Assembly: GCA_965228855.1 (NCBI GenBank)
Contig: CBDDIJ010000003.1
Coordinates: 2,016,001-2,080,000 of the forward strand
Length of the DNA: 64,000 nucleotides
DNA from: Candidatus Obscuribacterales bacterium
GTDB lineage: Bacteria > Cyanobacteriota > Vampirovibrionia > Obscuribacterales > Obscuribacteraceae
Direction of reading: 5' to 3'
Position numbers and translations under genes: made by a program. The notes under the pieces are model-generated. The model was not told the origin of the DNA. It did no database searches and saw only the letters and a list, made by a program, of their open reading frames with translations. Positions 5,207 to 47,865 of the stretch are shown here, in pieces. How positions within the stretch are numbered: the first letter of the stretch is position 1; each line of letters opens with the position of its first letter.

Positions 5207-5929
5207 CTAGGCGCTCAGCTTCGGTTGCATAGCAATCGGCGGAGGCAATTCCCTTGTCCACTGGAATGACCGCAAGGTCTCCACGATAGTCTGCGCATGA
5301 AACGGCATGTCATCGGTCGGCGCAGAGAAATGAACTTCATGTACCAGACGTCCGGGACCGTCTTCGGAGTCGGTAAATATACTCAGGAATTTGCGATCGA
5401 AAAGATTGTGCTCCCACCAGAGGGCCAACATCCGCCGTCCATGCAATTCTCCAACCTCAGCGGCGGCAATCGTGTACGAAGTCTCGCAGCACTTTGCCCG
5501 GGCAAACTGAACACCGCCAAGCATTCGGCCGCCGACGCTGGCATACCAGATTTCACGAATCTCATCGAGGTCCGGCTCTGATAGCTCCTTGAGTTCGGTC
5601 AACAAACTGCTGAACTTTGCCGCAGTTTCCATCGACACAGGATTTCCGCGAAACCAGAACTCCAGAGTGACGCTTGAATCGGTTTTCAACTCGAAGCGCC
5701 TGAAGATTTGACCTGCGCAGGAAATTCCACCTGCCAGGATTGTGGAACGCGTGCACTCTTGCCATTTGTTCAGGCGGATAAATTTGATTTCGTCAAAAAT
5801 CTGACCTGACAGCCGAGTGACGTCCGAAGTATCTACTTTGAATGACAATTTGCTTGATCTAGCGTGCATCTGTTTACCGCTCGAGATCCCCGGGTGCTGA
5901 CTGGTGCCGCATATGCGTCGCATATCCAT
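5207..5929 (-). CDS. Hypothetical protein, paralogue of 44386..45042, possibly PsbP/DcrB-like fold (start may be 5869)
   Basis: Shares the motifs RGxP(V/I)...AxxFxxxL, (Y/F)xIxAAE...(L/V)xG(R/K)xxL and EVxF...S(F/I)xW with the 44386 protein. Confidence 0.6.
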   Translation of the reverse strand: MDMRRICGTSQHPGISSGKQMHARSSKLSFKVDTSDVTRLSGQIFDEIKFIRLNKWQECTRSTILAGGISCAGQIFRRFELKTDSSVTLEFWFRGNPVSMETAAKFSSLLTELKELSEPDLDEIREIWYASVGGRMLGGVQFARAKCCETSYTIAAAEVGELHGRRMLALWWEHNLFDRKFLSIFTDSEDGPGRLVHEVHFSAPTDDMPFHAQTIVETLRSFQWTRELPPPIAMQPKLSA

Positions 5930-20946: not shown

Positions 20947-21125
20947 TCGTCATCCTCAGGTAGGTCTAATTCTTCTTATACCTCCTATTTAGCAACTTAG
21001 CTCGAGGTTAAACCCCGAGTCTTAATCATTCTACTGACAACATAAAGGGAAGCTTTTGAAGCCGAACTTCGGATTCAATTACCTGTATGATTGATGGACT
21101 ACCAAACGTTGTTATCAATAGAACT

Positions 21126-21968
21126 ATGGCGTATTTAGCAGAAATCAGCAGAGCAAACCCATCCTGTTTCGTGTTCCTGATCGATCAATCGGGCTCAATG
21201 CAGGACCCGTTCGGCTCCGTCACCGGAACGAAGACAAAGGCGATGGGTGTCGCCGACGCAATCAATAGATTGCTGCAAAATCTTGTCATCAAATGCACAA
21301 AATCGGAAGGCATTCGTGACTACTATCACGTCGCTGTTGTTGGTTATGGCGGCAAGGGCGTGAAGCCCGCCTTCGGTGGCGCACTTGAAAATAAAACGCT
21401 AATTCCAGTGAGCGAAATTGGAAACAATCCATATCGTCTGGAAGAGCGGCGCAAGAAGACCGAAGATAGCTCTGGTGCTGTTGTAGAGCAGACCATCAGG
21501 TTTCCCGTGTGGTTCGAGCCTGTCGCCTATGGCGGCACGCCGATGAACTCTGCTTTGCAGCAAGCCACATCGATCGTCGTAAAATGGCTTGCTGAGCACC
21601 CTCACTGCTTCCCACCCATAGTCATTAACATCTCGGACGGCGAATCAACTGACGGAGATCCGTTCCAATCCGCCTACGATTTGATGACTCTTTCGAGCAC
21701 CGACGGCGACGTTTTGCTGTTCAACGTGCACATCTCATCATCGAATCACCAACCAATCGAATATCCGGACAATGAGGCCGTTCTTCCGGACCAGCATGCA
21801 AAATTGCTGTTCACAATGTCGAGTCCATTACCTGATTACATGCGAAAAATGGTGGGCAATGAGGGAATCGACATCTCGTACAACACACGAGGTTTCGTGT
21901 TCAATGCTGATCTGGTGTCAGTGATTCGATTCCTCGACATCGGCACGCGACCAAGCAACATGCGTTAG
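21126..21968 (+). CDS. TerY-like von Willebrand A domain protein
   Basis: MIDAS DQSGS, GGTPM, NISDGE. Start MAYLAEISR within ORF 21087..21968. Confidence 0.85.
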   Translation: MAYLAEISRANPSCFVFLIDQSGSMQDPFGSVTGTKTKAMGVADAINRLLQNLVIKCTKSEGIRDYYHVAVVGYGGKGVKPAFGGALENKTLIPVSEIGNNPYRLEERRKKTEDSSGAVVEQTIRFPVWFEPVAYGGTPMNSALQQATSIVVKWLAEHPHCFPPIVINISDGESTDGDPFQSAYDLMTLSSTDGDVLLFNVHISSSNHQPIEYPDNEAVLPDQHAKLLFTMSSPLPDYMRKMVGNEGIDISYNTRGFVFNADLVSVIRFLDIGTRPSNMR

Positions 21969-22015
21969 TTACGGGGTCTCATCAGACGATATCAGAAACT
22001 GAGTGAAGCTAAGAC

Positions 22016-22756
22016 ATGAAAGTCCGTACGAAAACATTCTGGCTACCGAAGCGCGGCAATGCGACTGAGGAATACGAAGACGCAGCCTGGCCGCTAGATT
22101 CAGTTGACTGCGAAACCGACACTTTCAGATGTGCCGTCGCTGATGGTGCAACGGAAGCATCCTTTTCACGCAGGTGGGCGCAACTGCTTGTTAAAGGTTT
22201 CGATGATGAAACCGAAATCGCTAAACTTGCCGAAGAATGGAATTCCGAAATCAAGGAGATGGAACTTCCGTGGTACGCACAAGAGAAAGCCGAATCAGGT
22301 GCGTTTTCTACGTTTAGTGGACTGATCTTAAAAGACGGAGGCACCACGGGTGGTTCCTACTCAGCAAAACTTCTTGGCGACAGCTGCGTATTTCACATGC
22401 GCGGTGAAACATTGCTCGAGTCTATGCCACTGACGAGTTACGAATGTTTCAACAACTCACCGGCACTGCTCTGCAGCAATTTGTCCAACCATGAAGATGT
22501 TGAGGCTATGTTCAGTTCGAAAGAAGGAACCTGGGAAAACGGAGACCGCTTTCTGCTCGTGACAGACGCAATTGCAGCCTGGACTTTCAAGCGTCAACTC
22601 GAGCACGGTGATGGTTTCAAAAAGCTTCTCGAGATCGACAGCCAGGAAGTTTTAGATAAATTATGTCACGATGCCCGCGAAGAACATGATGAGCAGGGGC
22701 GTCCCAACATGCGCAACGACGACGTCACTCTTCTAATCGTGGAAGTATTCAGTTAG
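22016..22756 (+). CDS. PP2C-family protein phosphatase
   Basis: YEDA, AVADGATE, LGDS, LVTDA, NDDVT metal-binding motifs. Confidence 0.85.
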   Translation: MKVRTKTFWLPKRGNATEEYEDAAWPLDSVDCETDTFRCAVADGATEASFSRRWAQLLVKGFDDETEIAKLAEEWNSEIKEMELPWYAQEKAESGAFSTFSGLILKDGGTTGGSYSAKLLGDSCVFHMRGETLLESMPLTSYECFNNSPALLCSNLSNHEDVEAMFSSKEGTWENGDRFLLVTDAIAAWTFKRQLEHGDGFKKLLEIDSQEVLDKLCHDAREEHDEQGRPNMRNDDVTLLIVEVFS

Positions 22757-22774
22757 CAAACAGAGGGACACATC

Positions 22775-24280
22775 TTGCTCGATCATTTTTCCGATTCTGC
22801 AATCAAAGTTGTTCAACTCGCTCAGTTGGAAACAGAAGACTTATGTCACGATATCATAGGCACAGAACACCTTTTGCTTGGTTTACTCGCATACGAGATC
22901 GGCACGCCTGCGATTATTTTGAAAGCGCTCGGCATTACGCGCAGGAAAGCGAAGGAAGAAGTACTTCGCATCATGAAACGTGGTGCAAAGGAAAACAACT
23001 CAGTAGACTTCATGTTTACAGTTAGAGCCAAGGCGGTTTTTCGTATGGCGGAAGAAAACCGTGAGCGCAATGAAGACGGCAAAGTAGAACCTGACGATTT
23101 GATGTCGGCGATCCTTTCAGTTCCTCGCTGTACAGCGCAGAAAGTTTTGCACGCCCTGGACGTTGACACCGACGAGCTCATTCTCAGACTCGCCAGCAAA
23201 GGTACGAGCGATACCGAGACTGGTTTAAACGCAATTACTTTCGATCAGTTGAACGAATTGCATCATCGAATTCAGGCAGGCGGAGTTCCAGTTTCTAACG
23301 ATTCCGGACAACAAGCTTTCGGCAACCAGGCTGCAACATCCGACCCGCAGAGTGGAAATAGCGGGCACACTGCCGGCAACGACCCGATGATCGGCTACAT
23401 CATAGATCGAAAATATGAAGTCATATCCGTTCTCGGATATGGTGGAATGGGCGTCGTTTACAAGGTCAATCATCTGGTCTTGGGACGATATTTCGCGATA
23501 AAAATAATCCATCCCTATCTTGCCGCCGATGTGCAAAATCGCAGGCGGTTTCAGCGCGAAGCGCAAGCTGCGAGCCGTTTGACGCACCCAAACCTGGCGA
23601 CTGTTTTTGACTGGGACATAATGGAAGATGGCAGACCGTACATCGTCATGTATTACATTGATGGTGTGAAGCTCACCGATCTCATTCGAGTGAGGCAGAC
23701 CGTCAGTGAAAATTCATGGATATCGATTTTTATGCAGATGTGCGACGCTGTCGCGCATGCGCATGCCAATGGCGTTTTACACAGAGATTTAAAACCGAGC
23801 AACGTCATTTTGAGTAAAACAGACGACGCCTCGCATTTTGTCAAAATCGTCGATTTCGGCATTGCCAAAATTTTGACGCAGAATCCCAGTGAAGCCAAAG
23901 ACCTGACTAAGTCGGGAGAAGTCTTCGGAAGTCCGTTCTATATGAGTCCGGAGCAGTGCATGGGCCGGACGCTGGACGTGCGCTCGGATATTTACGGACT
24001 CGGAGTCGTGATGTACGAGTGCCTGACTGGAAGTTGTCCTTTCGTAGGCGAGAGTCTGTATCACACCATGACCCAACACGTTAACGCGGCACCACCACCG
24101 TTTTCGCAAATTGACCATACAAATCTGATTTCCAAAGACCTGGAAGCAGTCGTTATGAGATGCCTGGCTAAAAGCCCGGACAATCGTTATCAGTCGATGA
24201 CGAGCGTAAAACGCGCGCTCACAATGGCTCTGGGAGCAGCTAGCACCCGCCCTTCCGGCAGCTTCCAAGCTAACGCGTAA
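22775..24280 (+). CDS. Clp N-terminal (double Clp-R) domain fused to a Hanks Ser/Thr kinase
   Basis: IGTEHLLLGLL and FTVRAKAVF (ClpN), then GYGGMG, AIK, HRDLKPSN, DFG, SPEQ. No TM segment. Confidence 0.88.
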   Translation: MLDHFSDSAIKVVQLAQLETEDLCHDIIGTEHLLLGLLAYEIGTPAIILKALGITRRKAKEEVLRIMKRGAKENNSVDFMFTVRAKAVFRMAEENRERNEDGKVEPDDLMSAILSVPRCTAQKVLHALDVDTDELILRLASKGTSDTETGLNAITFDQLNELHHRIQAGGVPVSNDSGQQAFGNQAATSDPQSGNSGHTAGNDPMIGYIIDRKYEVISVLGYGGMGVVYKVNHLVLGRYFAIKIIHPYLAADVQNRRRFQREAQAASRLTHPNLATVFDWDIMEDGRPYIVMYYIDGVKLTDLIRVRQTVSENSWISIFMQMCDAVAHAHANGVLHRDLKPSNVILSKTDDASHFVKIVDFGIAKILTQNPSEAKDLTKSGEVFGSPFYMSPEQCMGRTLDVRSDIYGLGVVMYECLTGSCPFVGESLYHTMTQHVNAAPPPFSQIDHTNLISKDLEAVVMRCLAKSPDNRYQSMTSVKRALTMALGAASTRPSGSFQANA

Positions 24281-33568: not shown

Positions 33569-35092
33569 TTATTTCTTGCCTTTCGGTTTTACTTTTCGAA
33601 TCAAAGCATTTGCTTCTTTCTTGCGCTTCGAAGTGCTGTCAATTAATTCGAGGAGTTCGACCGCTTCATCATTGTTGTTGGACTTCAGTTTGTTTTGAGC
33701 CAGCCGGAAATACGACTCGTTCAGCAATTCGCTGTTTTCTTTAGATAGCTGGCCCTTGCCTTTAAGCGTTTCAAAAACTTGAATGCTGCCCTCGAAATTA
33801 CCTCTGTCCATGAGCTTTTTGGCAGTACTGGCGTCTGCGACGCTAACTGACATTTTCAATAAAGAAAAGACGGAGATAATCAAAACGCCCGCGAATAAAC
33901 CAACTTGCAATTGACGGAAACGGCCTTTCCGTTTCTTCTTAGAACCGACACTTGCAATTTCAGCGGTAGTTTTTGTCCAATCAACGCCGCTGGCAAGATC
34001 CATTGGAATGATAGCGGGCTCCGGTTTTCGCCCGGGTTGCAAAACTTGAGCACTGGCATCAAACGGAATCCAATCGTCGACCGGCGTATCCTCTGCTTGC
34101 TTTGGCCGACGCCTTACAGTGCAGGCAGATTCGATATCGTTCCACAACTCTTCTGCCGTTTGTTGCCGATCTTTTGGATCTTTGGAAAGTGCCTTGACCA
34201 CAACCGCGCTGAGCGCTGGAGGGAAAGCGTAGTCGGGTAACACTGCCCCTATGGATGGTGCTTCTTTGTTTACATGCATCAGCATTAACGCCATGAGATC
34301 GTTAGCGGAAAAGGGGCGTTGACCGGTGAATGTCTCAAATATGACGACACCCAGAGAATAAATGTCAGACCTGTAGTCGATCTCACCGCCCTTGCACTGC
34401 TCGGGGCTCATGTAGGCTGGGCTTCCACAAACTTTTCCTTCCAACGTGAGAGATGCCGACGAACCGCCACTTTCGCTCCACATTTTGGCAACGCCGAAAT
34501 CTACAACTCGAACGCTGTTTCTCTTGATCAACTCCGGTGCATCTTTTGGCAAACGCGTATCGACAAGCTGGCAGACGATATTGTCCGGCTTCAAATCTCG
34601 ATGAATGACCCTGAATCTATGCGCTTCAGCCATACCAGCACATACTTGCTCGATGAGCGGCAAAGCTTCCTTCACAGTCAAATGACCGCGCTGCCGAAGT
34701 ATTTCGGTAAGTGTTATGCCATCGAGAAATTCGGTGACGATGTACGGTTGTCCATCCGGCATTACGCCGAAGTCGTAGAGTTTGACGATGTTTGTATGAT
34801 GCAAACTGCTGACCGCTTTTGCTTCACGAAAAAAACGTTTAACCGACTCCTCTTTGGAGCCGAGAAACTGGTGCAGCATTTTGACAGCCATCTCCCGGCC
34901 GGTCGATTCTTGAATCGCGCGGTAAACCACAGCCATAGAGCCTTTTCCTGCGTGTGACAAGATTCGATATTTGTCACCGACTAATTGACCTATGAGCGGA
35001 TCATCGCCTACGACGATAAGCTGCGTGCCATCGTTAGGACAACTATCGTGGTCCTCGGTAAAGTGAATATTGCACTCTACGCATAGCTTCAT
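33569..35092 (-). CDS. Membrane Hanks Ser/Thr kinase: Zn-ribbon-like N-terminus, TM, TPR-like C-terminus
   Basis: CVEC...CPND, GKGSMA, AVK, HRDLKPDN, DFG, SPEQ, TM GLFAGVLIISVFSLL. Confidence 0.9.
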   Translation of the reverse strand: MKLCVECNIHFTEDHDSCPNDGTQLIVVGDDPLIGQLVGDKYRILSHAGKGSMAVVYRAIQESTGREMAVKMLHQFLGSKEESVKRFFREAKAVSSLHHTNIVKLYDFGVMPDGQPYIVTEFLDGITLTEILRQRGHLTVKEALPLIEQVCAGMAEAHRFRVIHRDLKPDNIVCQLVDTRLPKDAPELIKRNSVRVVDFGVAKMWSESGGSSASLTLEGKVCGSPAYMSPEQCKGGEIDYRSDIYSLGVVIFETFTGQRPFSANDLMALMLMHVNKEAPSIGAVLPDYAFPPALSAVVVKALSKDPKDRQQTAEELWNDIESACTVRRRPKQAEDTPVDDWIPFDASAQVLQPGRKPEPAIIPMDLASGVDWTKTTAEIASVGSKKKRKGRFRQLQVGLFAGVLIISVFSLLKMSVSVADASTAKKLMDRGNFEGSIQVFETLKGKGQLSKENSELLNESYFRLAQNKLKSNNNDEAVELLELIDSTSKRKKEANALIRKVKPKGKK

Positions 35093-35119: not shown

Positions 35120-38100
35120 TTATCGGCGTCTACGCTTGGATGTCGACGATTTTTTCCCGCCCTTTTGATACTGCTTGATCAACTTCTGCGCTTCCGCGTA
35201 GTGCGAAGACTCAGGTGGTATCAATTTGAGCTTTTCTAGAGCCTCGTTTGTCGCGCCATTGTTCTTCATATATTTTGCGATGCCGAGGTAGATCACGTCT
35301 AGCTTTTCAGACAATTCCGCCGGTAAACCATTTGCATCCTCTTCCGCTTCGAGCAATTTGCTCGCATCGTTGAGCTTGCCTTTGGCCATCAAATCATTAA
35401 CTTGGGAAAGAAGTTTTTCGCTGCTATCTTCAGCCTTCTGGCTGGTAGCCATGCCGGACATCATGCCATTCACCATGGACATCAAAGTGTCTTTGAACAT
35501 GAAACCGGCGCCGGCAAGAGCTATAACCGCAACGACCGCCAGAATCGGACCGACGGGCACTCGCGGCCCTGAACGGCGCGAACGCGAAGTTTTCTTACGG
35601 CGCTGCTCGGCTTCAGCCATCGAGGCCAGTCTATTTGAGTTGACCTTCTCCAATTCGCTGGCCGAGAAATCAGAACCACTCTGAGTCGGTTTTGCCGCCA
35701 TCGGCTGTGACGGCGGTGGTTGATAGTCGGCGCCGTATTGATGGCGCATTGCCGCCTCTTCCATGATGCGATTGACCACGTCCCGACGGTTGACTGAATC
35801 TCCTATGACCGACGGGTCCGGCGCCGGCGCGGGCGGCAACTCCACATTCTGCCGACCGGTCGTTTGAGCTTCCAATTTGCGATTCAGCTCAGCGATACGT
35901 GCATTGACAGCGTCCTGGCTGTAGCTGCTGTTAGTGCCGGTGCCGCCTGTCCGTCCCGCTCCGGCTCCGAAAGCTGCACCACCGCCGGTGCCGGAACCAA
36001 AGCCACTGCCACCACCACCGAAACCACCAAATGGTTGAGGTTCTTCGATTGCGTCAGCAGATTTCTGAGTCGCTAACTTTCTTGAAATCTTTGCCTGGGG
36101 CTTATTAACCCTGGCAGCCATTTTGTCGATTTCGCTCATCGAGCCGGATTCATTCGGCTTACTGGGAGCCTTACTGGCAGCTTCCAGCAGACGAGACAAT
36201 GCGTCGGATGTGGAAGTGGAAGGATTCTGGGGCATTGCACCGGATACGACGCTACCAGAGAGGTCAGATCCGAAGGATGAGGGAGAGTCGTCCTCGTCAT
36301 CTTCGCTCAATGCAGCAGCAAGTCTGGCCGCTGCCCCCATTTTCTCCTCTTTATCCTTTTCGCTCGAAGCAGGCTCGTCATCGGCGGTTGCCGGTTTCAC
36401 ACCCGGAGTACCGAGCAGATCGTCATCCGCTTCAAAAGGATTCTTCATCTCCGCAGGCTTTTTGATAATGCCTTTATCCGGAGGTTCCGGCAGCAAGTCT
36501 TCAAGCGCCTGTTGAATAGCCTCTTTCGGAAGGGTGTTCTCTCGCCCCTCTTCCTCTTCGGACGGCTCCGGCTCTGCTATTTCCAGTTCTTCATCGTCAT
36601 CTTTGACGGCAGCTAATAACTGTCCGAATGCGGAACTGCTCTTGTCTTTCTTTTCAGTCAACGAGCTAACCGACGCTGAAGAAGCTACCGCATCTGCAAA
36701 AGCGTTGGCGGTTCCCGCATCTTCTTCAGGTTCGGGCTCATCCTCGTCTTCCGCTGCGATTGCGCCCAACAGTCCAGCCAGACCTGTCGGCTTGACGGGT
36801 GCGTCCTCGTCGTCATCACGTCTTTTCGGCTTATCGTCCGCTTTGACCGAGTCAGATTTCCCAGAGAAATCAGTTTTTCCGGAGAAGTCAGACTTTTCTG
36901 ACTCAGTTATCTCGGAAGCTTCTTTGTTTGCCTTTCCTGAGAAATCAGTCTCCAATGCAGATCCGGATTTAGAGAAATCCGGTCGGTCCGCCTTTTCAGC
37001 TTCGAATCCACCGGAGCGCTCTTTCTCTGTTGCATCCATGAGCGCAAGGAGTGAGTCCCCAAGTTCTTCAGCCTCAGCTGCACTCTTGGCGGCGAGCGCA
37101 TTCTCCAGAGCGACCGCGTCGTAATCGTCCTTATCTTTGCTGAAGTCCAATCCGTTCGTGACGATCTCGTCGCCGCCGAGAAGAGCACCGAGACCGGTCC
37201 GACTTGATGTCGGTTCCTTTTTCGTTTCTTTTTCAGCTGTTTTTAGTTCCGGTTTTTTCTCTTCTACCGGCTCAGAAAATACTTGCGGTTCCTCGTCCAG
37301 AAAATCTTCGTACAACTGATCCTGAATCGAAGGAATAGTTGTGGAACTGTCACCAAACTCCGCCCTCAAATCGTCGGCGATCGCACGTCCGAGTGCGCCA
37401 TCATTTCCGGGAGGACTGGGGTTCATAAACGGTGGCATCTGGCCTGGTCCAGGCGGCATGCCCGGAGGCACCATGCCTGGTGGCATTCCTTGTGGTGGCA
37501 TCCCTGGTGGCATTTGCATTCCGGGGGGCATACCCTGTGGTGGCATCATCGGCATACCAGGTGCAGGCATACCATATTGATATGGCTGTCCTGGCGGCAT
37601 TCCGTAACCAGGCATCTGGTAGGAGCCGGAAACATCGCCGCCCGGTGGTGGATAATTCGGCATCAGCGGATAAGCACCGGACACTTCTTGATTCGGAGGC
37701 ATCGGATAACCCGGCGGTGGATAGCCCGGAGGCTGCATATAAGGATGCATCATGCCAGGTGGGTATGACATCGACTGGTCATATGGCGGCATCATCGGCT
37801 GTCCTGGCATTGAGGGCAATGCACCGGGCGGCCAGCTTTGATTCATACCAGGATATCCGGGCTGCGCCGGAGGCACTCCCTGCGGTGTCACTCCGACCGG
37901 CCAGGCACCACCGCCTGCAGCCGGGTGAAGAGGCTCACCGGAGTCAAGATTGATCGGAGCAACGCTTCCGGTTTTTAACGCTTCGATCTCACCTTCCCAA
38001 TCCAGATTGGAGATCTTGCGCTCCGGAATGTCACCAAGATTGCCGTCGAGAGAATCGCTGCTGTCGGCCCAGGTCGCACCCGCGCGCGCCAGAGCCGGTG

Positions 38101-40429
38101 TAATCTCATCAGGATAATCGACTGGCGAGCTGGAATTACGTTCTGGTCCTGCAAGCAAATCCCGCCTGGGAGCCGGTTCAGTTTTTCCGGATGCAGGAGT
38201 CTTAGCAGAAGCGGCAGCTGGTGCCGCGCCGGTCTTTGCAGCAGTGGCCGGTTGAGTACCAGGTTTGGCACCAGGACTGGTACCAGTTGTTGGAGTAGGC
38301 TTTGTTCCTGTAGGTCCTGTATTCTTTGAGCCTGATGGTGCAACGCCCGGCTTTGAGGCAGAAGAACTCGGTGCACCTGGCTTTGCTCCGCCAGGAGCTG
38401 TGCCGGCAGGCTTTGCGCCACTCGGTCCGGTTTTCGCTCCAGCAGGTGCTCCTTTTGCACCGGTCGCACTGGTCGGCGCACCGCTAGCAGGTTTGGCACC
38501 AGTCGGTCCACCGGGTCTCTGGGGGGCAGTTCCAGGCTTAGCGCCCTGAGGACCAGCCGGCGACTTCTCAGGCGCCTGGGCGATTTTTTCCTCCTTGGGA
38601 GGAACGTAACTATAAACCGAGGGCGGTCTGGCTTCCGCAGGCTTCGGCTCCAGCGCAGCCGACGCGGCTGACGCTTCAGGCTTAGACTCGAAATCAGTCG
38701 GTATCGGCATCGCAGTCGTCGGTCGCTTTACCAGCGCCGACAAGCGATTCATAGTTTTATCCGGTAAAGCTTCGGATTCCTGGTTGTTAGCCTGAGCAGC
38801 AGGCTTGCTGGTCTCTTTGGCAGGCGCAGGAGGTTTTTGCGGCATCCCCGGCTTCGCAGCCGGAAGCGGAGGCGCAGCACTCTTAACCCCGGCCGGGCCA
38901 GAGCCTGGCGGGCCGGGTGGCTTCGCGCCGGGCACGGGTGGCGGACCGCCCGCTGGTCTTGGGCCACCTGGTCCAGGTGGTGCGGAAGGACGGGCTGGTG
39001 CGTTCCCAGCGGAATTTTGGGACTGGTTGGGTCTGGCAGGCTCACCCGGCTTGGCAGCTGGAGCGGTCTTCGGTCCCCCGGGACCGACGCGGGCAGGCTG
39101 CAACGGTTTCACCGCAGGTGTGGACGTGCTGCTCTGAGCAGGCAAAGTGTTATTCGATATACTGGGAGAAGGCGGAGCAGAGGCTGGTTTCGCTTGTTGT
39201 TTGTTGACCAACCCGGACATCCCGGTAGCTGGGCGCGTTCCTGCTGGAGGGAGACCACCGCCGGGTTTTGGCGCGGATGGTGCTGAGCCGGGAGCGGGCG
39301 CGGATTTCGGCGGAGGCGGCGGCGGCATGAACAATTCCGGCATATCTTCCGGGCCGGCTTCGAATTGGGGACGCTTGGGCTTGTCCTCATCGATCAATCG
39401 CTCGCTGGGCAAGATTTCAAGGTCGGAAACATTCTGCTGCTCACGCGGCATCAATTTCGCTCTATCACTCTTTCCGAACTCGAGACCGGCGCAGGCCGCT
39501 TCGAGCTCTTTCCAGAACTCCCGCACGGAAGATTGGCGCTCGTCCGGCAACTTGCTGAGTGCTTTGGCGACGACGGCCTCGACTCGCTCGGGGAAGGTCA
39601 GGTCTTTTCGTACAGCGCCCATCTTGGGAGCAGGCTCCGTGACCGTCATGTACATCAATTTCATCAAGTCGTGGGCGAGAAAAGGTCTGCGCCCGGTGAA
39701 CATTTCAAAGACGATAACGGCCATCGAATAAAGATCGCTTCGATAGTCAAGTTCGAAGCCCTGACATTGCTCGGGGCTCATGTATGCGGGACTGCCAGCC
39801 ACGGTTTTAGGTTTGTTGAACTTGGCTCTCTGAGCGCTCTCGTGCGGTGTATCTGCGATACCGAAATCCAGCACTTTGACATAATCGCCGCGAATCTCGC
39901 TCTCCTCGAGAACTACGTTTTCCGGCTTCATGTCTCTGTGAATCAGCCCCTGCTCGTGCGCGTGCCCCAGAGCTTCTGTTACCTGCCGCATCACGTTCAA
40001 TACTCGCTTCGGTGGCAACGCCCCTTTTTGAGTGATGAGCTGACTGAGCGTGATTCCCTCCAGATAGTCCATGACGAGATATGGCTGACCATCGTCGGTG
40101 GTGCCTGAATCCCAGACTGTAATAATGTGGGGATGGCGCAGACGCTCAGCGGCTTTCAACTCGCGCAACAAGCGGTCGAGTGAAGCTGAATCTGCACCGA
40201 GATAGCTGTGAATCACCTTTACGGCAACTTCGCCGCCCATCATCAGGCGTGAGGCTTTATAAACAATCCCGCTGGAGCCCTTACCGATTACCGAATCGAT
40301 TACGTAGCGATCGTCAATTAGCGCACCAATCAACGGATCCTTTCCGACCGGCTCTAGAATCACCTGGTCTTTAGGACACACTTCTTCTGTGTCATTGAAA
40401 TACTGATTGCATCTAAGGCAAAGTTTCAT
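35120..40429 (-). CDS. Giant (1769 aa) membrane Hanks Ser/Thr kinase with ~1300-aa low-complexity linker
   Basis: CLRC...CPKD, GKGSSG, AVK, HRDMKPEN, DFG, SPEQ, TM ILAVVAVIALAGAGFMF near the C-terminus. Confidence 0.9.
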   Translation of the reverse strand: MKLCLRCNQYFNDTEEVCPKDQVILEPVGKDPLIGALIDDRYVIDSVIGKGSSGIVYKASRLMMGGEVAVKVIHSYLGADSASLDRLLRELKAAERLRHPHIITVWDSGTTDDGQPYLVMDYLEGITLSQLITQKGALPPKRVLNVMRQVTEALGHAHEQGLIHRDMKPENVVLEESEIRGDYVKVLDFGIADTPHESAQRAKFNKPKTVAGSPAYMSPEQCQGFELDYRSDLYSMAVIVFEMFTGRRPFLAHDLMKLMYMTVTEPAPKMGAVRKDLTFPERVEAVVAKALSKLPDERQSSVREFWKELEAACAGLEFGKSDRAKLMPREQQNVSDLEILPSERLIDEDKPKRPQFEAGPEDMPELFMPPPPPPKSAPAPGSAPSAPKPGGGLPPAGTRPATGMSGLVNKQQAKPASAPPSPSISNNTLPAQSSTSTPAVKPLQPARVGPGGPKTAPAAKPGEPARPNQSQNSAGNAPARPSAPPGPGGPRPAGGPPPVPGAKPPGPPGSGPAGVKSAAPPLPAAKPGMPQKPPAPAKETSKPAAQANNQESEALPDKTMNRLSALVKRPTTAMPIPTDFESKPEASAASAALEPKPAEARPPSVYSYVPPKEEKIAQAPEKSPAGPQGAKPGTAPQRPGGPTGAKPASGAPTSATGAKGAPAGAKTGPSGAKPAGTAPGGAKPGAPSSSASKPGVAPSGSKNTGPTGTKPTPTTGTSPGAKPGTQPATAAKTGAAPAAASAKTPASGKTEPAPRRDLLAGPERNSSSPVDYPDEITPALARAGATWADSSDSLDGNLGDIPERKISNLDWEGEIEALKTGSVAPINLDSGEPLHPAAGGGAWPVGVTPQGVPPAQPGYPGMNQSWPPGALPSMPGQPMMPPYDQSMSYPPGMMHPYMQPPGYPPPGYPMPPNQEVSGAYPLMPNYPPPGGDVSGSYQMPGYGMPPGQPYQYGMPAPGMPMMPPQGMPPGMQMPPGMPPQGMPPGMVPPGMPPGPGQMPPFMNPSPPGNDGALGRAIADDLRAEFGDSSTTIPSIQDQLYEDFLDEEPQVFSEPVEEKKPELKTAEKETKKEPTSSRTGLGALLGGDEIVTNGLDFSKDKDDYDAVALENALAAKSAAEAEELGDSLLALMDATEKERSGGFEAEKADRPDFSKSGSALETDFSGKANKEASEITESEKSDFSGKTDFSGKSDSVKADDKPKRRDDDEDAPVKPTGLAGLLGAIAAEDEDEPEPEEDAGTANAFADAVASSASVSSLTEKKDKSSSAFGQLLAAVKDDDEELEIAEPEPSEEEEGRENTLPKEAIQQALEDLLPEPPDKGIIKKPAEMKNPFEADDDLLGTPGVKPATADDEPASSEKDKEEKMGAAARLAAALSEDDEDDSPSSFGSDLSGSVVSGAMPQNPSTSTSDALSRLLEAASKAPSKPNESGSMSEIDKMAARVNKPQAKISRKLATQKSADAIEEPQPFGGFGGGGSGFGSGTGGGAAFGAGAGRTGGTGTNSSYSQDAVNARIAELNRKLEAQTTGRQNVELPPAPAPDPSVIGDSVNRRDVVNRIMEEAAMRHQYGADYQPPPSQPMAAKPTQSGSDFSASELEKVNSNRLASMAEAEQRRKKTSRSRRSGPRVPVGPILAVVAVIALAGAGFMFKDTLMSMVNGMMSGMATSQKAEDSSEKLLSQVNDLMAKGKLNDASKLLEAEEDANGLPAELSEKLDVIYLGIAKYMKNNGATNEALEKLKLIPPESSHYAEAQKLIKQYQKGGKKSSTSKRRRR

Positions 40430-44385: not shown

Positions 44386-45042
44386 TCACATTTTGTCGGA
44401 TTCTTTTGACCACTCAATGCTGGCCATAGCCTGCCGGGCGTCAGGCAAATGCTTTGAAAAATGCGGCTCCTGACCTTCGAAATAAACTTCCTGAATCTCA
44501 CGGCTACTGGCGTCCTTGGGTACATATAGACCGTGAAATTTTTTGCCGCCTTCCCGCCACTCACCATCTACTGACAAAACAGTTTTACCGTTGACTCGAA
44601 TTGTTTCAGCCGCATTTATTTGAAATGCGGAACTGTCACCGACATTGCCCAGCACCTGAGCATTGAGCGTTGCGATCTCCGCCGGCTCCAGTTTATGCGG
44701 TGCTTTATCGAGAATGGCTTGAAACTGCTGCGCCTCGCTACTTGCAATCGGAAAACCGCGATCGTAGAGCGCAAGTTCCGCCCCCTGTCCATCAGGAGGA
44801 AGGAATGATAAGCTTTTCGCCACTTCACCGAAGTTGGAATCACGAGCCTCTTTTCTCCACTCACGAGGAACGAGCAAGTTATCAATCGGTTCCATTCCGG
44901 CCATCGAACTTTCACGCTTATGCCCACTGCTACGCGGCAAATCGAAATCGTGAGCAAAAACATCAAGCGGCAGTTCCGAATAGGACTGCGCTTGCCTCTC
45001 ATTTTTATCAAGTCGAAAAATCGGCTCTCTCAGGTCGTCCAA
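44386..45042 (-). CDS. Hypothetical protein, possibly PsbP/DcrB-like fold; partner of the upstream protease-like protein
   Basis: AGGAG RBS, 39 bp after the 45082 gene. VPREW, VNGKTVL and AMASIEW pattern. Paralogue at 5207..5929. Confidence 0.65.
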   Translation of the reverse strand: MDDLREPIFRLDKNERQAQSYSELPLDVFAHDFDLPRSSGHKRESSMAGMEPIDNLLVPREWRKEARDSNFGEVAKSLSFLPPDGQGAELALYDRGFPIASSEAQQFQAILDKAPHKLEPAEIATLNAQVLGNVGDSSAFQINAAETIRVNGKTVLSVDGEWREGGKKFHGLYVPKDASSREIQEVYFEGQEPHFSKHLPDARQAMASIEWSKESDKM

Positions 45043-45081
45043 GGCTTTTATTCTCCTAAATGAATCAGTATTCGGATCTCA

Positions 45082-47865
45082 TTAGCGTCGATACCACACG
45101 AAAGTGCTACCGTCTCCACTGCTCGTGGAACTCATCACTTCATACAAATCGTTCAACGTGATGAAAACCGTTTTGTTCAAATCCTTGCCCTGAGCGGCAG
45201 CCTCAGCTTTGGTTTGAACGTCGTAGAGCGGATTCCAGGAATTGTCGACCGACACTGTTTTTGAAGCGGCATCATATCCGGTGACCAGGAACAAGTGCTC
45301 GCCACCAGCTGGTTTTGCTACCGCATTCGGATCTTTACCTTCATTTAGTGCCACCTGCTGTCGGTAGCGATACTCCAGAACTCCAGTATTTCCCTGGGTT
45401 ATCTTCGGAAGATCATTTTTGAGAAGCATCGCTTCTAATTCCTGAACCGATTTTTGCTTAGCCCCAACCAGATCTTTGAACGTGGTCTCATTATCAACCC
45501 AACGATTCTGATGCACCAGAAATCTATCAGTCAACTTATCGCCGGTCATTTGATTCCAGATGTCGGCTATTCGAGAAGGAAATCCTACTCGCGGGCTATC
45601 GTAAGGGTTAGCGGTACCATTTTTGCTGCTATAGAGAACCAACTGAGAGCCATCACTATTGGTGCGAATCAGGCGAGCACCACTATCGCTTCTACCGGTT
45701 GGCGCAACTTCTTCGTAACACATAGCACCCTTACTGCAGACGGAACCCAGCGGGTCCTTGGTATCGCGCTGCATCGAAATATTCACCGCGCACACATCCC
45801 ACAATTTCCCAAGCGCGCTGCGGCTTCCCGGCTTGGGAGGGAAAGTTTCCTCCGGGCTACCCGGGCGAACTCGCACAGATTCGAGCTTAGGTTTGATCGT
45901 GGTTCCATCAAGAGTTTCAAACTGTCCATCGTTGGCGAAATCAGCCGCAAGCTTTGCCACCACTGACGGTTTTTCCTTGAGAGCAATTCCCCTCAATGCG
46001 GTGACGCTGCAGGTGCTGTTGCTGCCCTGATCGTTGCGTCTATCATTGGCAATGTGCCAGAAAAGCTGGTCGGCATAATTAGCCTTCTCCGCAGAAGTCA
46101 TAACCGAATCGGTTCGACCATGCAATAAGCGATCTGCTTCCTTGAAGACCTTGTCTTTCTCCGTTGAAGAAAACTTACTCATCTCTCGAAACTTTGTGAC
46201 ATTGTCAATCAAGCGAATCTTTTGAAACGCATCCAGGTCATTGTGAGTGTATATATCCGCCTCAAACTTCTCGAGCTTTGCATAAGGCTTAGCGCTGTCG
46301 ATTGCACTATCGGAAAAACTTCCGTCTGCTGCACGAGTAAGTTTCAGATTCTTATTTACATGTCGTATCTCGCTTGTCGAGCCATCCGCAGCATATTCAA
46401 TCTGGACGTCGTCGTCACCGACTTTGACGCGGGTGATCTTTCCTGATTCCTTTTCGACCAGGGTTTTATCCTTGAGATTCTCCTTCTCATAGTGACCGCT
46501 AAGCGTCCTGACGGCGCGCTCTCCACCATCGACATCCTTATAAGAGTATGTTCCGTCCCTTTTGACTTCGACTTCGGTATTCCATTTTGCACCACTCGAG
46601 GATGTGTATTCAGTAGGTCCGGTCTTCTTCCAGATCGTCTCGGCGCCGTCCTTTTCCGCTATCTTTATCTCTTCCGGTTGTTTGAGAACATCTTTGTCAG
46701 TTCCGAAAGTCTCTTTGAATTTGAAGCTGAACTTAGTTTTGTCCGGATAAGGAACTTCTACAGACATAGAACCATCGGGCTTGTAAGACTCGTTGATGCC
46801 GTTGGCACGCGATTCGTCACGCAAGCCTTGTTCCGCACCGCTCAGAGTCGTTCGCGAGAAAACTCCGGTTTTCCCGTCGATTTCAACCTTCCCATGCCAA
46901 CCTGCGGCAGTGTTTGGACTGTTAGCCCAGATGTTATCCCCGACCTGGTACCAATCCGCGTTAGTTCTGACGCTGTGGAAGCTCTTAATCTTGTCGCCAT
47001 CCCAAACAATGTTTTTTAACCGACCGGCGAGTTCCGATGGATGATTGGCTTTGAAGGCATCGTCATCCGGATAAATGGACCTGCCACCATCAGTGGTTTC
47101 GCGGAGAACCTGCCCTCCGTCCACGGTTATTTTTACACTGCCGTCGAGTTGAGCTTCGACACCCGTTATTTTTTTGCCGGGCAAGTCTGAGTGCTCGCCG
47201 ATAGTGGCGCCGGTTTTGTCTTTGGCTTGCCAATCTCCGGATGCGGTGCGCTCGTATGTCCATCTGCCGTCAGCACTTACGACCGGCACCACTTTTGGTG
47301 GCGGGGCTATCTCGACGCTCTGAGCGGGCGGCGCCTCTTCCTTCTTTTCCTTCTCAGCGTTTTCCTTATCAATCCTGGCAGCAGGACTAGGTTTTGCAAC
47401 CGTAGCGTCGGCCACACGAAGCTGATCGATGGGGTCTAAGTATGATAATTCACTTTTTCCGAAATGCGATTTATAACTTTCCTTTTGAGGCGCAGAGCCG
47501 TTCTTCGATTTCGGATTGAGCCCAACAACGTCTAGAACCGGAAGCTTAGTGCCGTTCTTCTGAGCGCCGGATACATCGCCTGCGTCTAGAAGCGGCGCCG
47601 ACATACTGGCGCGCAAAGTTTCGGCGAGCGGAAAGTTTTTCACACCACTGATGAAATCAAAGAGGCTTGCAGACGGAAATCCAGCCGGTAGTGCAGAGCC
47701 CCGCCCGTCGGTCAACGTGGTCGGTTTTGTATCAAGTGAAGAAGGTGTCGGCGTAAACTCAGAACCCATCTCATCAAGCAGGTCCCGAACAAATACTTTG
47801 TGCACGCCATCATCCGCAGCAGAAGGCTTAGCGCCTTGCTGCGCGGTATCCAGTGGTTTTGCCAT
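45082..47865 (-). CDS. Large beta-repeat protein with C-terminal papain-like cysteine peptidase-like domain
   Basis: DQGSNSTCSVTAL (Gln/Cys), EHLFLVTGYD (His), VDNSW (Asn). Central W/G-rich beta-hairpin repeats. Confidence 0.7.
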   Translation of the reverse strand: MAKPLDTAQQGAKPSAADDGVHKVFVRDLLDEMGSEFTPTPSSLDTKPTTLTDGRGSALPAGFPSASLFDFISGVKNFPLAETLRASMSAPLLDAGDVSGAQKNGTKLPVLDVVGLNPKSKNGSAPQKESYKSHFGKSELSYLDPIDQLRVADATVAKPSPAARIDKENAEKEKKEEAPPAQSVEIAPPPKVVPVVSADGRWTYERTASGDWQAKDKTGATIGEHSDLPGKKITGVEAQLDGSVKITVDGGQVLRETTDGGRSIYPDDDAFKANHPSELAGRLKNIVWDGDKIKSFHSVRTNADWYQVGDNIWANSPNTAAGWHGKVEIDGKTGVFSRTTLSGAEQGLRDESRANGINESYKPDGSMSVEVPYPDKTKFSFKFKETFGTDKDVLKQPEEIKIAEKDGAETIWKKTGPTEYTSSSGAKWNTEVEVKRDGTYSYKDVDGGERAVRTLSGHYEKENLKDKTLVEKESGKITRVKVGDDDVQIEYAADGSTSEIRHVNKNLKLTRAADGSFSDSAIDSAKPYAKLEKFEADIYTHNDLDAFQKIRLIDNVTKFREMSKFSSTEKDKVFKEADRLLHGRTDSVMTSAEKANYADQLFWHIANDRRNDQGSNSTCSVTALRGIALKEKPSVVAKLAADFANDGQFETLDGTTIKPKLESVRVRPGSPEETFPPKPGSRSALGKLWDVCAVNISMQRDTKDPLGSVCSKGAMCYEEVAPTGRSDSGARLIRTNSDGSQLVLYSSKNGTANPYDSPRVGFPSRIADIWNQMTGDKLTDRFLVHQNRWVDNETTFKDLVGAKQKSVQELEAMLLKNDLPKITQGNTGVLEYRYRQQVALNEGKDPNAVAKPAGGEHLFLVTGYDAASKTVSVDNSWNPLYDVQTKAEAAAQGKDLNKTVFITLNDLYEVMSSTSSGDGSTFVWYRR

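Follow-up and report, generated by a model that had tools for sequence, protein, structure and literature searches.

In the 64,000-nucleotide stretch of contig CBDDIJ010000003.1 analyzed here (the window; forward-strand positions 2,016,001 to 2,080,000 of assembly GCA_965228855.1, from a Candidatus Obscuribacterales bacterium), two adjacent open reading frames (ORFs) on the reverse strand encode a 927-aa protein with a C-terminal papain-fold domain (45082..47865) and a 218-aa partner (44386..45042). This enzyme-partner system is real, conserved and uncatalogued. Inhibition of the enzyme by the partner is predicted from a model of their complex, and we infer that the enzyme is exported and toxic. 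We put at roughly 0.55 the probability that the papain-fold protease is exported and is kept inactive in its producer by a cognate cap over the active site. A preliminary description of this DNA, made from the letters alone, had proposed a secreted protease or toxin with a downstream immunity or chaperone gene, and both ORFs and all eight motifs that it quoted are present as described. In what follows, G000 is the source genome (95% complete), G002, G007, G012, G015 and G021 are the genomes of relatives, and L numbers denote individual loci; the features of the pair all lie on the reverse strand.

The enzyme domain and its family

The enzyme domain spans residues 531-927 (45082..46275) and comprises a helical N-cap (about residues 532-606) followed by the catalytic domain proper, a papain fold in which a large insert separates the Cys helix from the His strand. 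Its AlphaFold2 model, obtained with 114 sequences, reached a pLDDT of 96.8 and a pTM of 0.94; in it the Cys opens helix 89-101, and the His and Asn lie on strands 326-335 and 340-344 (model numbering). We aligned the query with its top 150 homologues, which were picked by similarity to the query, and found Cys619 kept in 148/148 filled rows, His857 in 145/145, Asn875 in 142/145 and Gln613 in 146/148. On the basis of fold alignment and this conservation, and with residue roles as in papain, these four residues are predicted to form the catalytic center: Gln613 as the oxyanion residue and Cys619 as the nucleophile (46009..46029), His857 and Asn875 completing the triad (45241..45297). The codons of the triad lie at 46011-46009 (Cys), 45297-45295 (His) and 45243-45241 (Asn). 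The conserved triad is the one that the preliminary description had picked out, with exactly the spacings it gave (Cys-His 238, His-Asn 18), and its hidden papain-like domain with an inserted subdomain is supported by the fold model and by structural alignments, in which the long Cys-His distance corresponds to the insert.

Phytochelatin synthase was the first-ranked Foldseek match of the enzyme model and also the best in full structural alignment (Z 8.8-8.9), the best matches there giving an rmsd of 3.4-3.8 Å over 156-163 residues. Further matches were the pseudomurein endoisopeptidase PeiR (Z 7.9), a Cpe1-type toxin (7.8), SpeB (7.4-7.7) and calpain, which gave the longest alignment (204-210 residues; Z 7.2-7.6, rmsd 4.5-5.0, identity 10-12%); staphopain (in the range given for SpeB) and C39 peptidases also lay within about 1.5 Z of the top. 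In a wide structural search 49 of 50 rows were classed as papain-fold enzymes, in part by title, a count that includes 22OC, 7WUW and 9QVJ, which we presume to belong to this class. No fold match stands out and identities are 6-19%; therefore we regard residues 531-927 as a papain-fold domain that, judged from its model, constitutes an uncatalogued family of its own. Consistent with this, the 927-aa protein had no match in Pfam or NCBIfam (PF00648 and the Pfam Tox-PL families included) and did not reach the cut-off of the catalogued families C1, C2, C10, C39, C47, C83 and Tox-PL1/2/3. When 32 family members were scanned against family profiles, three touched Peptidase_C39_2 (best E 2.4e-5) and one Peptidase_C1 (E 0.035), and a sequence-profile search of the PDB with the enzyme ranked plant papains best, at E 0.079 or worse.

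The family is large. A search with residues 531-927 returned 632 representatives (50% clustering) at E <=0.001, and a single-sequence query found the domain in 25 of 27 sampled Obscuribacterales genomes, at 1 to 26 matches per genome, and in none of 13 genomes from other orders of the class. Homologues are annotated as Candidatus Obscuribacterales, and most of the 78 loci from our genome scan carry the labels Obscuribacterales, Obscuribacteraceae, Obscuribacter or Melainabacteria; a metagenome scan for the family gave one locus only. A profile search extended to other classes of the phylum, where distant relatives occur in several copies (45/301 genomes, the source genome included), and those inspected keep the QG...C motif, with no partner in the short flanks examined. 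In the distant homologues L150-L158, QG...C is joined in several cases by H and NPWG, and the leaders are of low complexity, without Sec signals.

The source genome holds 12 copies of the enzyme domain, in proteins of 413-3514 aa, alongside 10 genes of the partner family, which bears out the genome-wide family suspected earlier. In paralogues the domain is preceded by YD/RHS repeats, annexin-like repeats with hydrophobic hairpins, FHA or LRR domains, and in two giants it is followed by HExxH or GGDEF; it is because of these fusions that we suggest a role in conflict with other cells. The 3514-aa protein (C5:792954-803498, L005) carries the papain domain, an HELTH motif and two GGDEF-like domains behind a hydrophobic hairpin, and it adjoins response-regulator genes. 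At C3:1393688-1394929 (L009:1189-2430) and in L074 the catalytic Cys is apparently replaced by Ser, L074 still having a downstream partner. The divergent YD-repeat paralogues at C3:3428347-3431988 and C3:330245-333667 (L010, L011) have calpain-like Cys-Trp starts and match the first half only of the domain profile. Four giants (C2:324229-332349, C2:1683273-1691483, C3:1207714-1213191 and C2:2146147-2149995; L144, L001, L012 and L007) share annexin-like repeats, with Ala/Gly-rich hydrophobic hairpins in at least three of them, and carry as cargo PRTase-CE plus tyrosine phosphatase, FHA plus papain domain plus HExxH, or an HD-like domain (so labeled from reading the sequence) that is common to two of the giants and C5:1433359; they look like a true modular effector family. 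An ORF of 8541 aa (C3:2827646-2853271, L148) combines diverged YD-type repeats with a region related to the HExxH tail of C2:1683273, and its residues 1-5000 had no Pfam match.

The partner and the predicted complex

The partner, which has no signal peptide, is modeled with a Mog1p/PsbP (Eag/DcrB-like) fold at residues 47-218 (pLDDT 94.3) and is predicted to be the cognate inhibitor of the enzyme. Foldseek returned 19 matches at E <=0.001, PsbP, LpqN and EagT6 (E 2e-4) among them, with weaker matches to DcrB (E 5e-3) and to the PA3488 chain (E 0.019), and by its features the protein was assigned to the DUF4946 cluster at 0.95. These structural matches support the PsbP/DcrB-like nature first ascribed to the partner. 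Pfam and NCBIfam gave no match for it, no DUF1795 profile match was found in 34 members of its family, and a sequence-profile search of the PDB returned unrelated rows only.

The two genes are 39 nt apart, and an AGGAG lies 10 nt 5′ of the TTG start of the partner, and judging from this spacing and ribosome-binding site they are likely co-expressed. The link between enzyme and partner is strong. A partner gene lies directly downstream, on the same strand, of 4 of the 12 enzyme genes in the source genome (one of them weak, E 3e-4), of 9 of 29 enzyme genes in five other genomes (9 of their 21 partner genes) and at 25 of 40 subfamily loci, a count that left out 8 duplicates, loci below 140 bits and two loci with less than 700 bases downstream. 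Of 78 further loci, 5 were set aside for their short downstream sequence; the partner is downstream in 47 of the other 73, and 3 of the 78 also have a copy upstream. These counts and the gene order kept in G002, G007 and G021 bear on the synteny of the pair, which is seen in relatives. Tandem partner copies occur in G015.

To this linkage the complex model adds a predicted interaction. The enzyme-partner complex, modeled from self-built alignments, scored 0.70 while the best of three controls scored 0.00; 116 of 157 solved complexes attain the 0.70 mark, as do 2 of 215 mismatched pairs. Runs agreed in at least 89% of contacts, with the partner at a pLDDT of at least 83. The modeled interface comprises Cys619, Ser615/617, residues 853-858, Trp877 and loop 720-728 (45682..45708). 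This loop makes the tightest and best-defined predicted contacts, with Arg725 (45693-45691) set against Tyr47, Phe123, Glu139 and Tyr141 of the partner (partner domain numbering); the codon of the pocket Glu (residue 185 of the 218), as placed by the complex model and the alignment, is at 44490-44488. The partner is thus predicted to sit over Cys619 and His857 and to grip Arg725, and it therefore reads as a cognate inhibitor rather than as a chaperone of transmembrane helices. Of the two roles offered for the downstream gene in the preliminary description, the predicted capping of the active site favors inhibition or immunity; an Eag-type chaperone finds no transmembrane helix in this enzyme.

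Covariation between Arg725 and the partner is suggestive. Among the 40 subfamily loci, 23 have both Arg725 and a partner, 3 the Arg without a partner, 2 a partner without the Arg, and 12 neither, which makes Arg725 the best of 397 columns for predicting partner presence (35/40 loci). The two Arg-less loci with a partner (L118 and L119, near-identical) have Ser for the pocket Glu, whereas the Glu is retained in the remaining 22 full-length partners. Across the wider family, hypervariability is seen in the enzyme loop and the partner hairpin alike, as expected for cognate recognition. We set aside a Fisher p of 6e-6 for Arg725 and a mirror-tree r of 0.91 (16 pairs), because kinship and linkage yield such signals in any case.

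The mechanism we propose runs as follows. Enzyme and partner would be co-expressed from their adjacent ORFs; Cys619, His857 and Asn875 with Gln613 would form the catalytic center of a cysteine protease; the concave sheet of the partner would grip loop 720-728, with a Glu/Tyr/Phe/Trp pocket receiving Arg725, and the variable hairpin of the partner (domain residues 17-31) would come near the enzyme cleft. Clamped in this way, the enzyme would stay off inside the producer until export, for which the disordered leader and the YD-type stalk would carry it out by a non-Sec route, and it would then act outside or in another cell.

A partner paralogue is encoded elsewhere in the window (5207..5929, reverse strand), divergent from relA and with no enzyme gene beside it. 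It had been described as an orphan partner. The paralogy is true (24% identity over 139 aa, E 5e-9; profile E 1e-37), but its orthologue group, which has a conserved Cys-containing hairpin loop, is fixed in divergent orientation to relA in 18 of 21 loci; it is therefore a stable resident and not a recent orphan, and it may have a separate regulatory role. In another family member, a 506-aa protein (C5:905682-907202; L016:1683-3203), the partner domain stands at the end of a long disordered N-terminus like that of the enzyme leaders, and this protein is possibly an exported form of the inhibitor.

Leader, repeats, locus and export routes

Ahead of the enzyme domain lies a polar, probably disordered leader (residues 1-190; 47296..47865), in which 76% of residues are disorder-promoting and which has no Sec signal, in agreement with the earlier account. 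No membrane-like segment occurs anywhere in the protein (maximum 19-residue hydropathy 1.02). An LPxLxV-type motif at residues 108-113 (47544-47527) is a candidate export signal; the LPxLxL type is enriched in family N-termini, occurring in 28 of 134 homologues, mostly near residues 45-65 (shuffles: mean 6.7, maximum 14). As a genome-wide export tag the motif was rejected for its weak enrichment (48 versus 24-47). A Sec-like leader replaces the disordered one in 5 of the 134 homologues (start Met present) and in one paralogue, and both subfamily members with such a leader lack Arg725; most other homologues start with a polar low-complexity stretch.

The beta-hairpin region that follows (residues 191-530; 46276..47295) had been described as repeats. 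Its residues 398-487 match a YD-unit profile, which we built from the RHS-annexin giant C2:324229 of the source genome, at E 1.3e-6 (200 shuffles gave E 11 or worse), and the hairpins therefore appear to be diverged YD-type repeats; BLAST detected no internal self-repeat in the protein. PF05593 and TIGR01643 gave no match for it, while some homologues are named YD repeat-containing or score with PF05593, and no DPxG-type Rhs cleavage motif was found in the protein, the part ahead of the enzyme domain included. All strong matches to residues 191-530 in 28 genomes sit in ORFs that end in the same enzyme domain, and a single weak match (E 3e-5) has no enzyme domain within the sequence stretch examined. 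The swapped C-terminal tips expected of a polymorphic toxin were thus not found in the 28 genomes; as far as these comparisons of sequence go, the papain tip is constant and the front variable.

The pair ends head-on to a gene for a TPR-PDZ protein. The order from a nurA-like gene to mqnE, enzyme, partner, TPR-PDZ gene and dprA is kept in G007, G002 and G021, and in G002 a second enzyme-partner pair is inserted tail-to-tail at the same site. A mobile cassette was not borne out, the position of the locus being constant across genera. Scans for promoters and terminators at the locus gave nothing above chance level. Elsewhere in the window, two tandem Ser/Thr-kinase-like genes, assigned from sequence motifs, lie at 35120-40429 and 33569-35092; the product of the first has 1769 aa, with a very long region rich in Pro and Ala, and the gene keeps its synteny with the enzyme locus in G007, G012 and G021. 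Three consecutive genes at 21087-24280 resemble, by our reading of their sequences, a vWA protein, a PP2C-like protein and a Clp-N-domain kinase.

We searched the source genome for machines that could export the enzyme. FlhA, FliF/YscJ, TssC, phage sheath and WXG100 proteins were not found in this 95% complete genome, the positive controls being detected; the search gave no marker of type III or type VI secretion, of contractile systems or of WXG100 export. The VirB4 profile had no match in it. A TrbE/TrbB-like conjugation cluster lies on contig C4, which we treat as probably foreign because of its deviating GC (0.27-0.30, then 0.61-0.68, versus about 0.50-0.53 for the main contigs); this contig (L143) looks chimeric, with eukaryotic-looking ORFs in its first 50 kb, at the lower GC, followed by the trb cluster at the higher. 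The genome does have a Tad locus and a type IV pilus locus, as well as three secretins; the Tad or type IV pilus/secretin machines would be the sole export candidates found. The Tad-type locus (C5:1516795-1525024, L146) encodes CpaB, an ATPase and a TadB-like protein and has no adjacent secretin; two tandem secretin genes lie elsewhere (C3:2780998-2785777).

Competing explanations and known systems

Several results weigh against an exported protease with a cognate cap. The fold evidence for the enzyme is middling, with all Z-scores below 9 and no Foldseek match at E <=0.001 (best E 0.023). The complex score of 0.70 comes from self-built alignments, and close cousins can pass this kind of test. 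Independent contrasts of Arg725 against partner presence gave 4 in the same direction, 1 opposite and 2 uninformative (p 0.375), and the wider family shows a variable loop and, in most cases, a pocket Glu retained without Arg at 725. An adjacent partner is missing from 20 of 29 enzyme loci in the five genomes and from 26 of the 73 further loci; G012 keeps the same nurA-like/mqnE/enzyme/TPR-PDZ/dprA order with the partner gone. The locus is a fixed chromosomal site across genera, vertically fixed, with a host-like GC of 0.48-0.52 over the pair, as in the remaining window. Finally, the leader motif is limited to the 28 homologues and barely enriched genome-wide, and the injection-system markers named above were not found.

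Some of these points suit a regulated protease that never leaves the cytoplasm and serves in signaling or protein processing, the partner being its inhibitor, its adaptor or a substrate cleaved in the cleft hairpin. The lack of a Sec signal and of an injection system, the fixed position between mqnE and the TPR-PDZ gene in G002, G007, G012 and G021, the partner paralogue fixed beside relA and the signaling-type FHA and GGDEF fusions would all fit it. We nevertheless consider it unlikely, given the Sec-type leaders of some homologues, the paralogues with YD repeats, annexin repeats and hydrophobic hairpins, the widely variable copy number and the hypervariability of both contact loops.

The fold of the partner, which matches EagT6 and DcrB, raises another alternative, namely an Eag-like chaperone or loading adaptor for some export machine that covers the active site incidentally. 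PsbP/MOG1 genes beside toxins have been described as adaptors (PMC3482391), and one partner paralogue (C3:1213469) lies just upstream of an annexin/hydrophobic-hairpin giant without a protease domain. Eags, however, shield the transmembrane helices of type VI secretion system (T6SS) effectors, which they bind as dimers (PMC12881460), and the enzyme has no such helix. Moreover, TssC and sheath genes were not found in the genome, a partner follows the enzyme gene in 47 loci and precedes it in 3, and the predicted contact is with the catalytic domain; we give this explanation little credence.

Similarly improbable is a domain that is capped by the partner but works as a transpeptidase, amidase, deamidase or peptidoglycan isopeptidase instead of an endopeptidase. 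The top fold matches, phytochelatin synthase and PeiR, and the weak LysM match of one paralogue (E 0.011) point that way. SpeB, calpain (with the longest alignment), staphopain and the C39 peptidases, however, lie within about 1.5 Z of them; Gln-x5-Cys and Asn-x-Trp form the peptidase pattern, and the best PDB profile matches are plant papains, though at the weak E-values given above. A classical Rhs-type polymorphic toxin with a papain tip exchanged by recombination and 5207 as its orphan immunity gene would account for the YD-like repeats, the C-terminal position, the downstream cognate gene and the shared N-termini and differing C-terminal cargo of the annexin-hairpin giants, but for the enzyme gene it is largely refuted and very unlikely, as the repeat region leads to the same domain in all strong matches from the 28 genomes (the weak one excepted), DPxG is lacking, the N-terminus and not the tip varies, and 5207 is a fixed orthologue.

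The capped, exported protease that we favor has counterparts among known systems. In staphopain-staphostatin (C47), SpeB-Spi (C10) and the Bacteroides pairs Bfp/Bfi and Btp/Bti, a papain-fold protease gene is co-transcribed with the gene of a small cognate inhibitor, which is thought to block prematurely active protease in the cytoplasm (PMC3462683), and the arrangement here would be alike. Those proteases are secreted zymogens with unrelated small inhibitors, whereas our enzyme has a disordered leader and a YD-like stalk in place of a Sec signal, a large insert, and a partner of the Mog1p/PsbP fold. Cpe1-Cpi1 (PDB 9L5U) and a CdiA-CT pair (8SSK/8SSM) likewise join a papain-fold tip to a downstream cognate binder, and Cpe1-type structures match the enzyme at Z 7.4-7.8 with an rmsd of about 3 Å over 124-125 residues. 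Cpe1, in contrast, is a small domain of C39-like type whose delivery is by T6SS or contact-dependent inhibition (CDI), and Cpi1, which is without structural homologues, binds next to the active site instead of covering it (PMC12136450). The best reading, by analogy, is that the pair would work like staphopain-staphostatin, SpeB-Spi or Cpe1-Cpi1 yet belong to none of them.

On the partner side, the fold resembles Eag/DUF1795 proteins (EagT6, SciW), DcrB, PsbP and PA3488, of which the Eags serve T6SS effectors with transmembrane helices. PA3488 inhibits the phospholipase PldA by holding it in a near-closed state (PMC9550806) and is a possible precedent for immunity conferred by this fold. The calpain core (Peptidase C2) shares the QG...C start and the long Cys-His distance; the enzyme differs from it in the longer insert and the low identity, in giving no PF00648 match and in showing no calpain accessory domains. 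Tox-PL1, Tox-PL2, Tox-PL3 and Tox-PLC39 are papain folds too, borne within repeat proteins or at their ends, and annexin-bearing effectors of Photorhabdus virulence cassette (PVC) type have annexin domains ahead of their enzyme cargo (PMC3482391). Tox-PL tips have other signatures (mostly C-H-D) and other immunity families, whereas here we found no Pfam Tox-PL match, no sheath gene and no tip swapping. The literature searched gave no description of the enzyme family or of the pair, although the supplements of PMC3482391 could list the family, and none of a Mog1p/PsbP fold blocking a cysteine protease; the main text of a classification of papain-like families (PMC10318531) mentions neither Melainabacteria nor PsbP, and its supplements could likewise list the family.

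A wider picture, which we offer tentatively and consider possible rather than probable, is that Obscuribacterales possess a so far undescribed arsenal of effectors that does without type III, type VI, contractile or WXG100 systems. Proteins with a disordered leader (in some with the LPxLxL motif), a YD stalk or an annexin-hairpin module for translocation would deliver papain-fold proteases, phosphatases and HD and HExxH enzymes to the inside of other cells, probably via Tad or type IV pilus/secretin machines, and the Eag/PsbP fold would be recast as a lock-and-key inhibitor of cysteine proteases.

The analysis defines an uncatalogued and heavily expanded papain-fold family and predicts that a protein of the Mog1p/PsbP fold caps the active site of a cysteine protease. 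If true, this would be a new class of inhibitor and would connect immunity proteins with Eag chaperones. The Obscuribacterales are an uncultured, non-photosynthetic sister group of the photosynthetic cyanobacteria whose lifestyle is poorly known, and possession of many guarded enzymes of effector type would suggest that they actively antagonize or prey on other cells.

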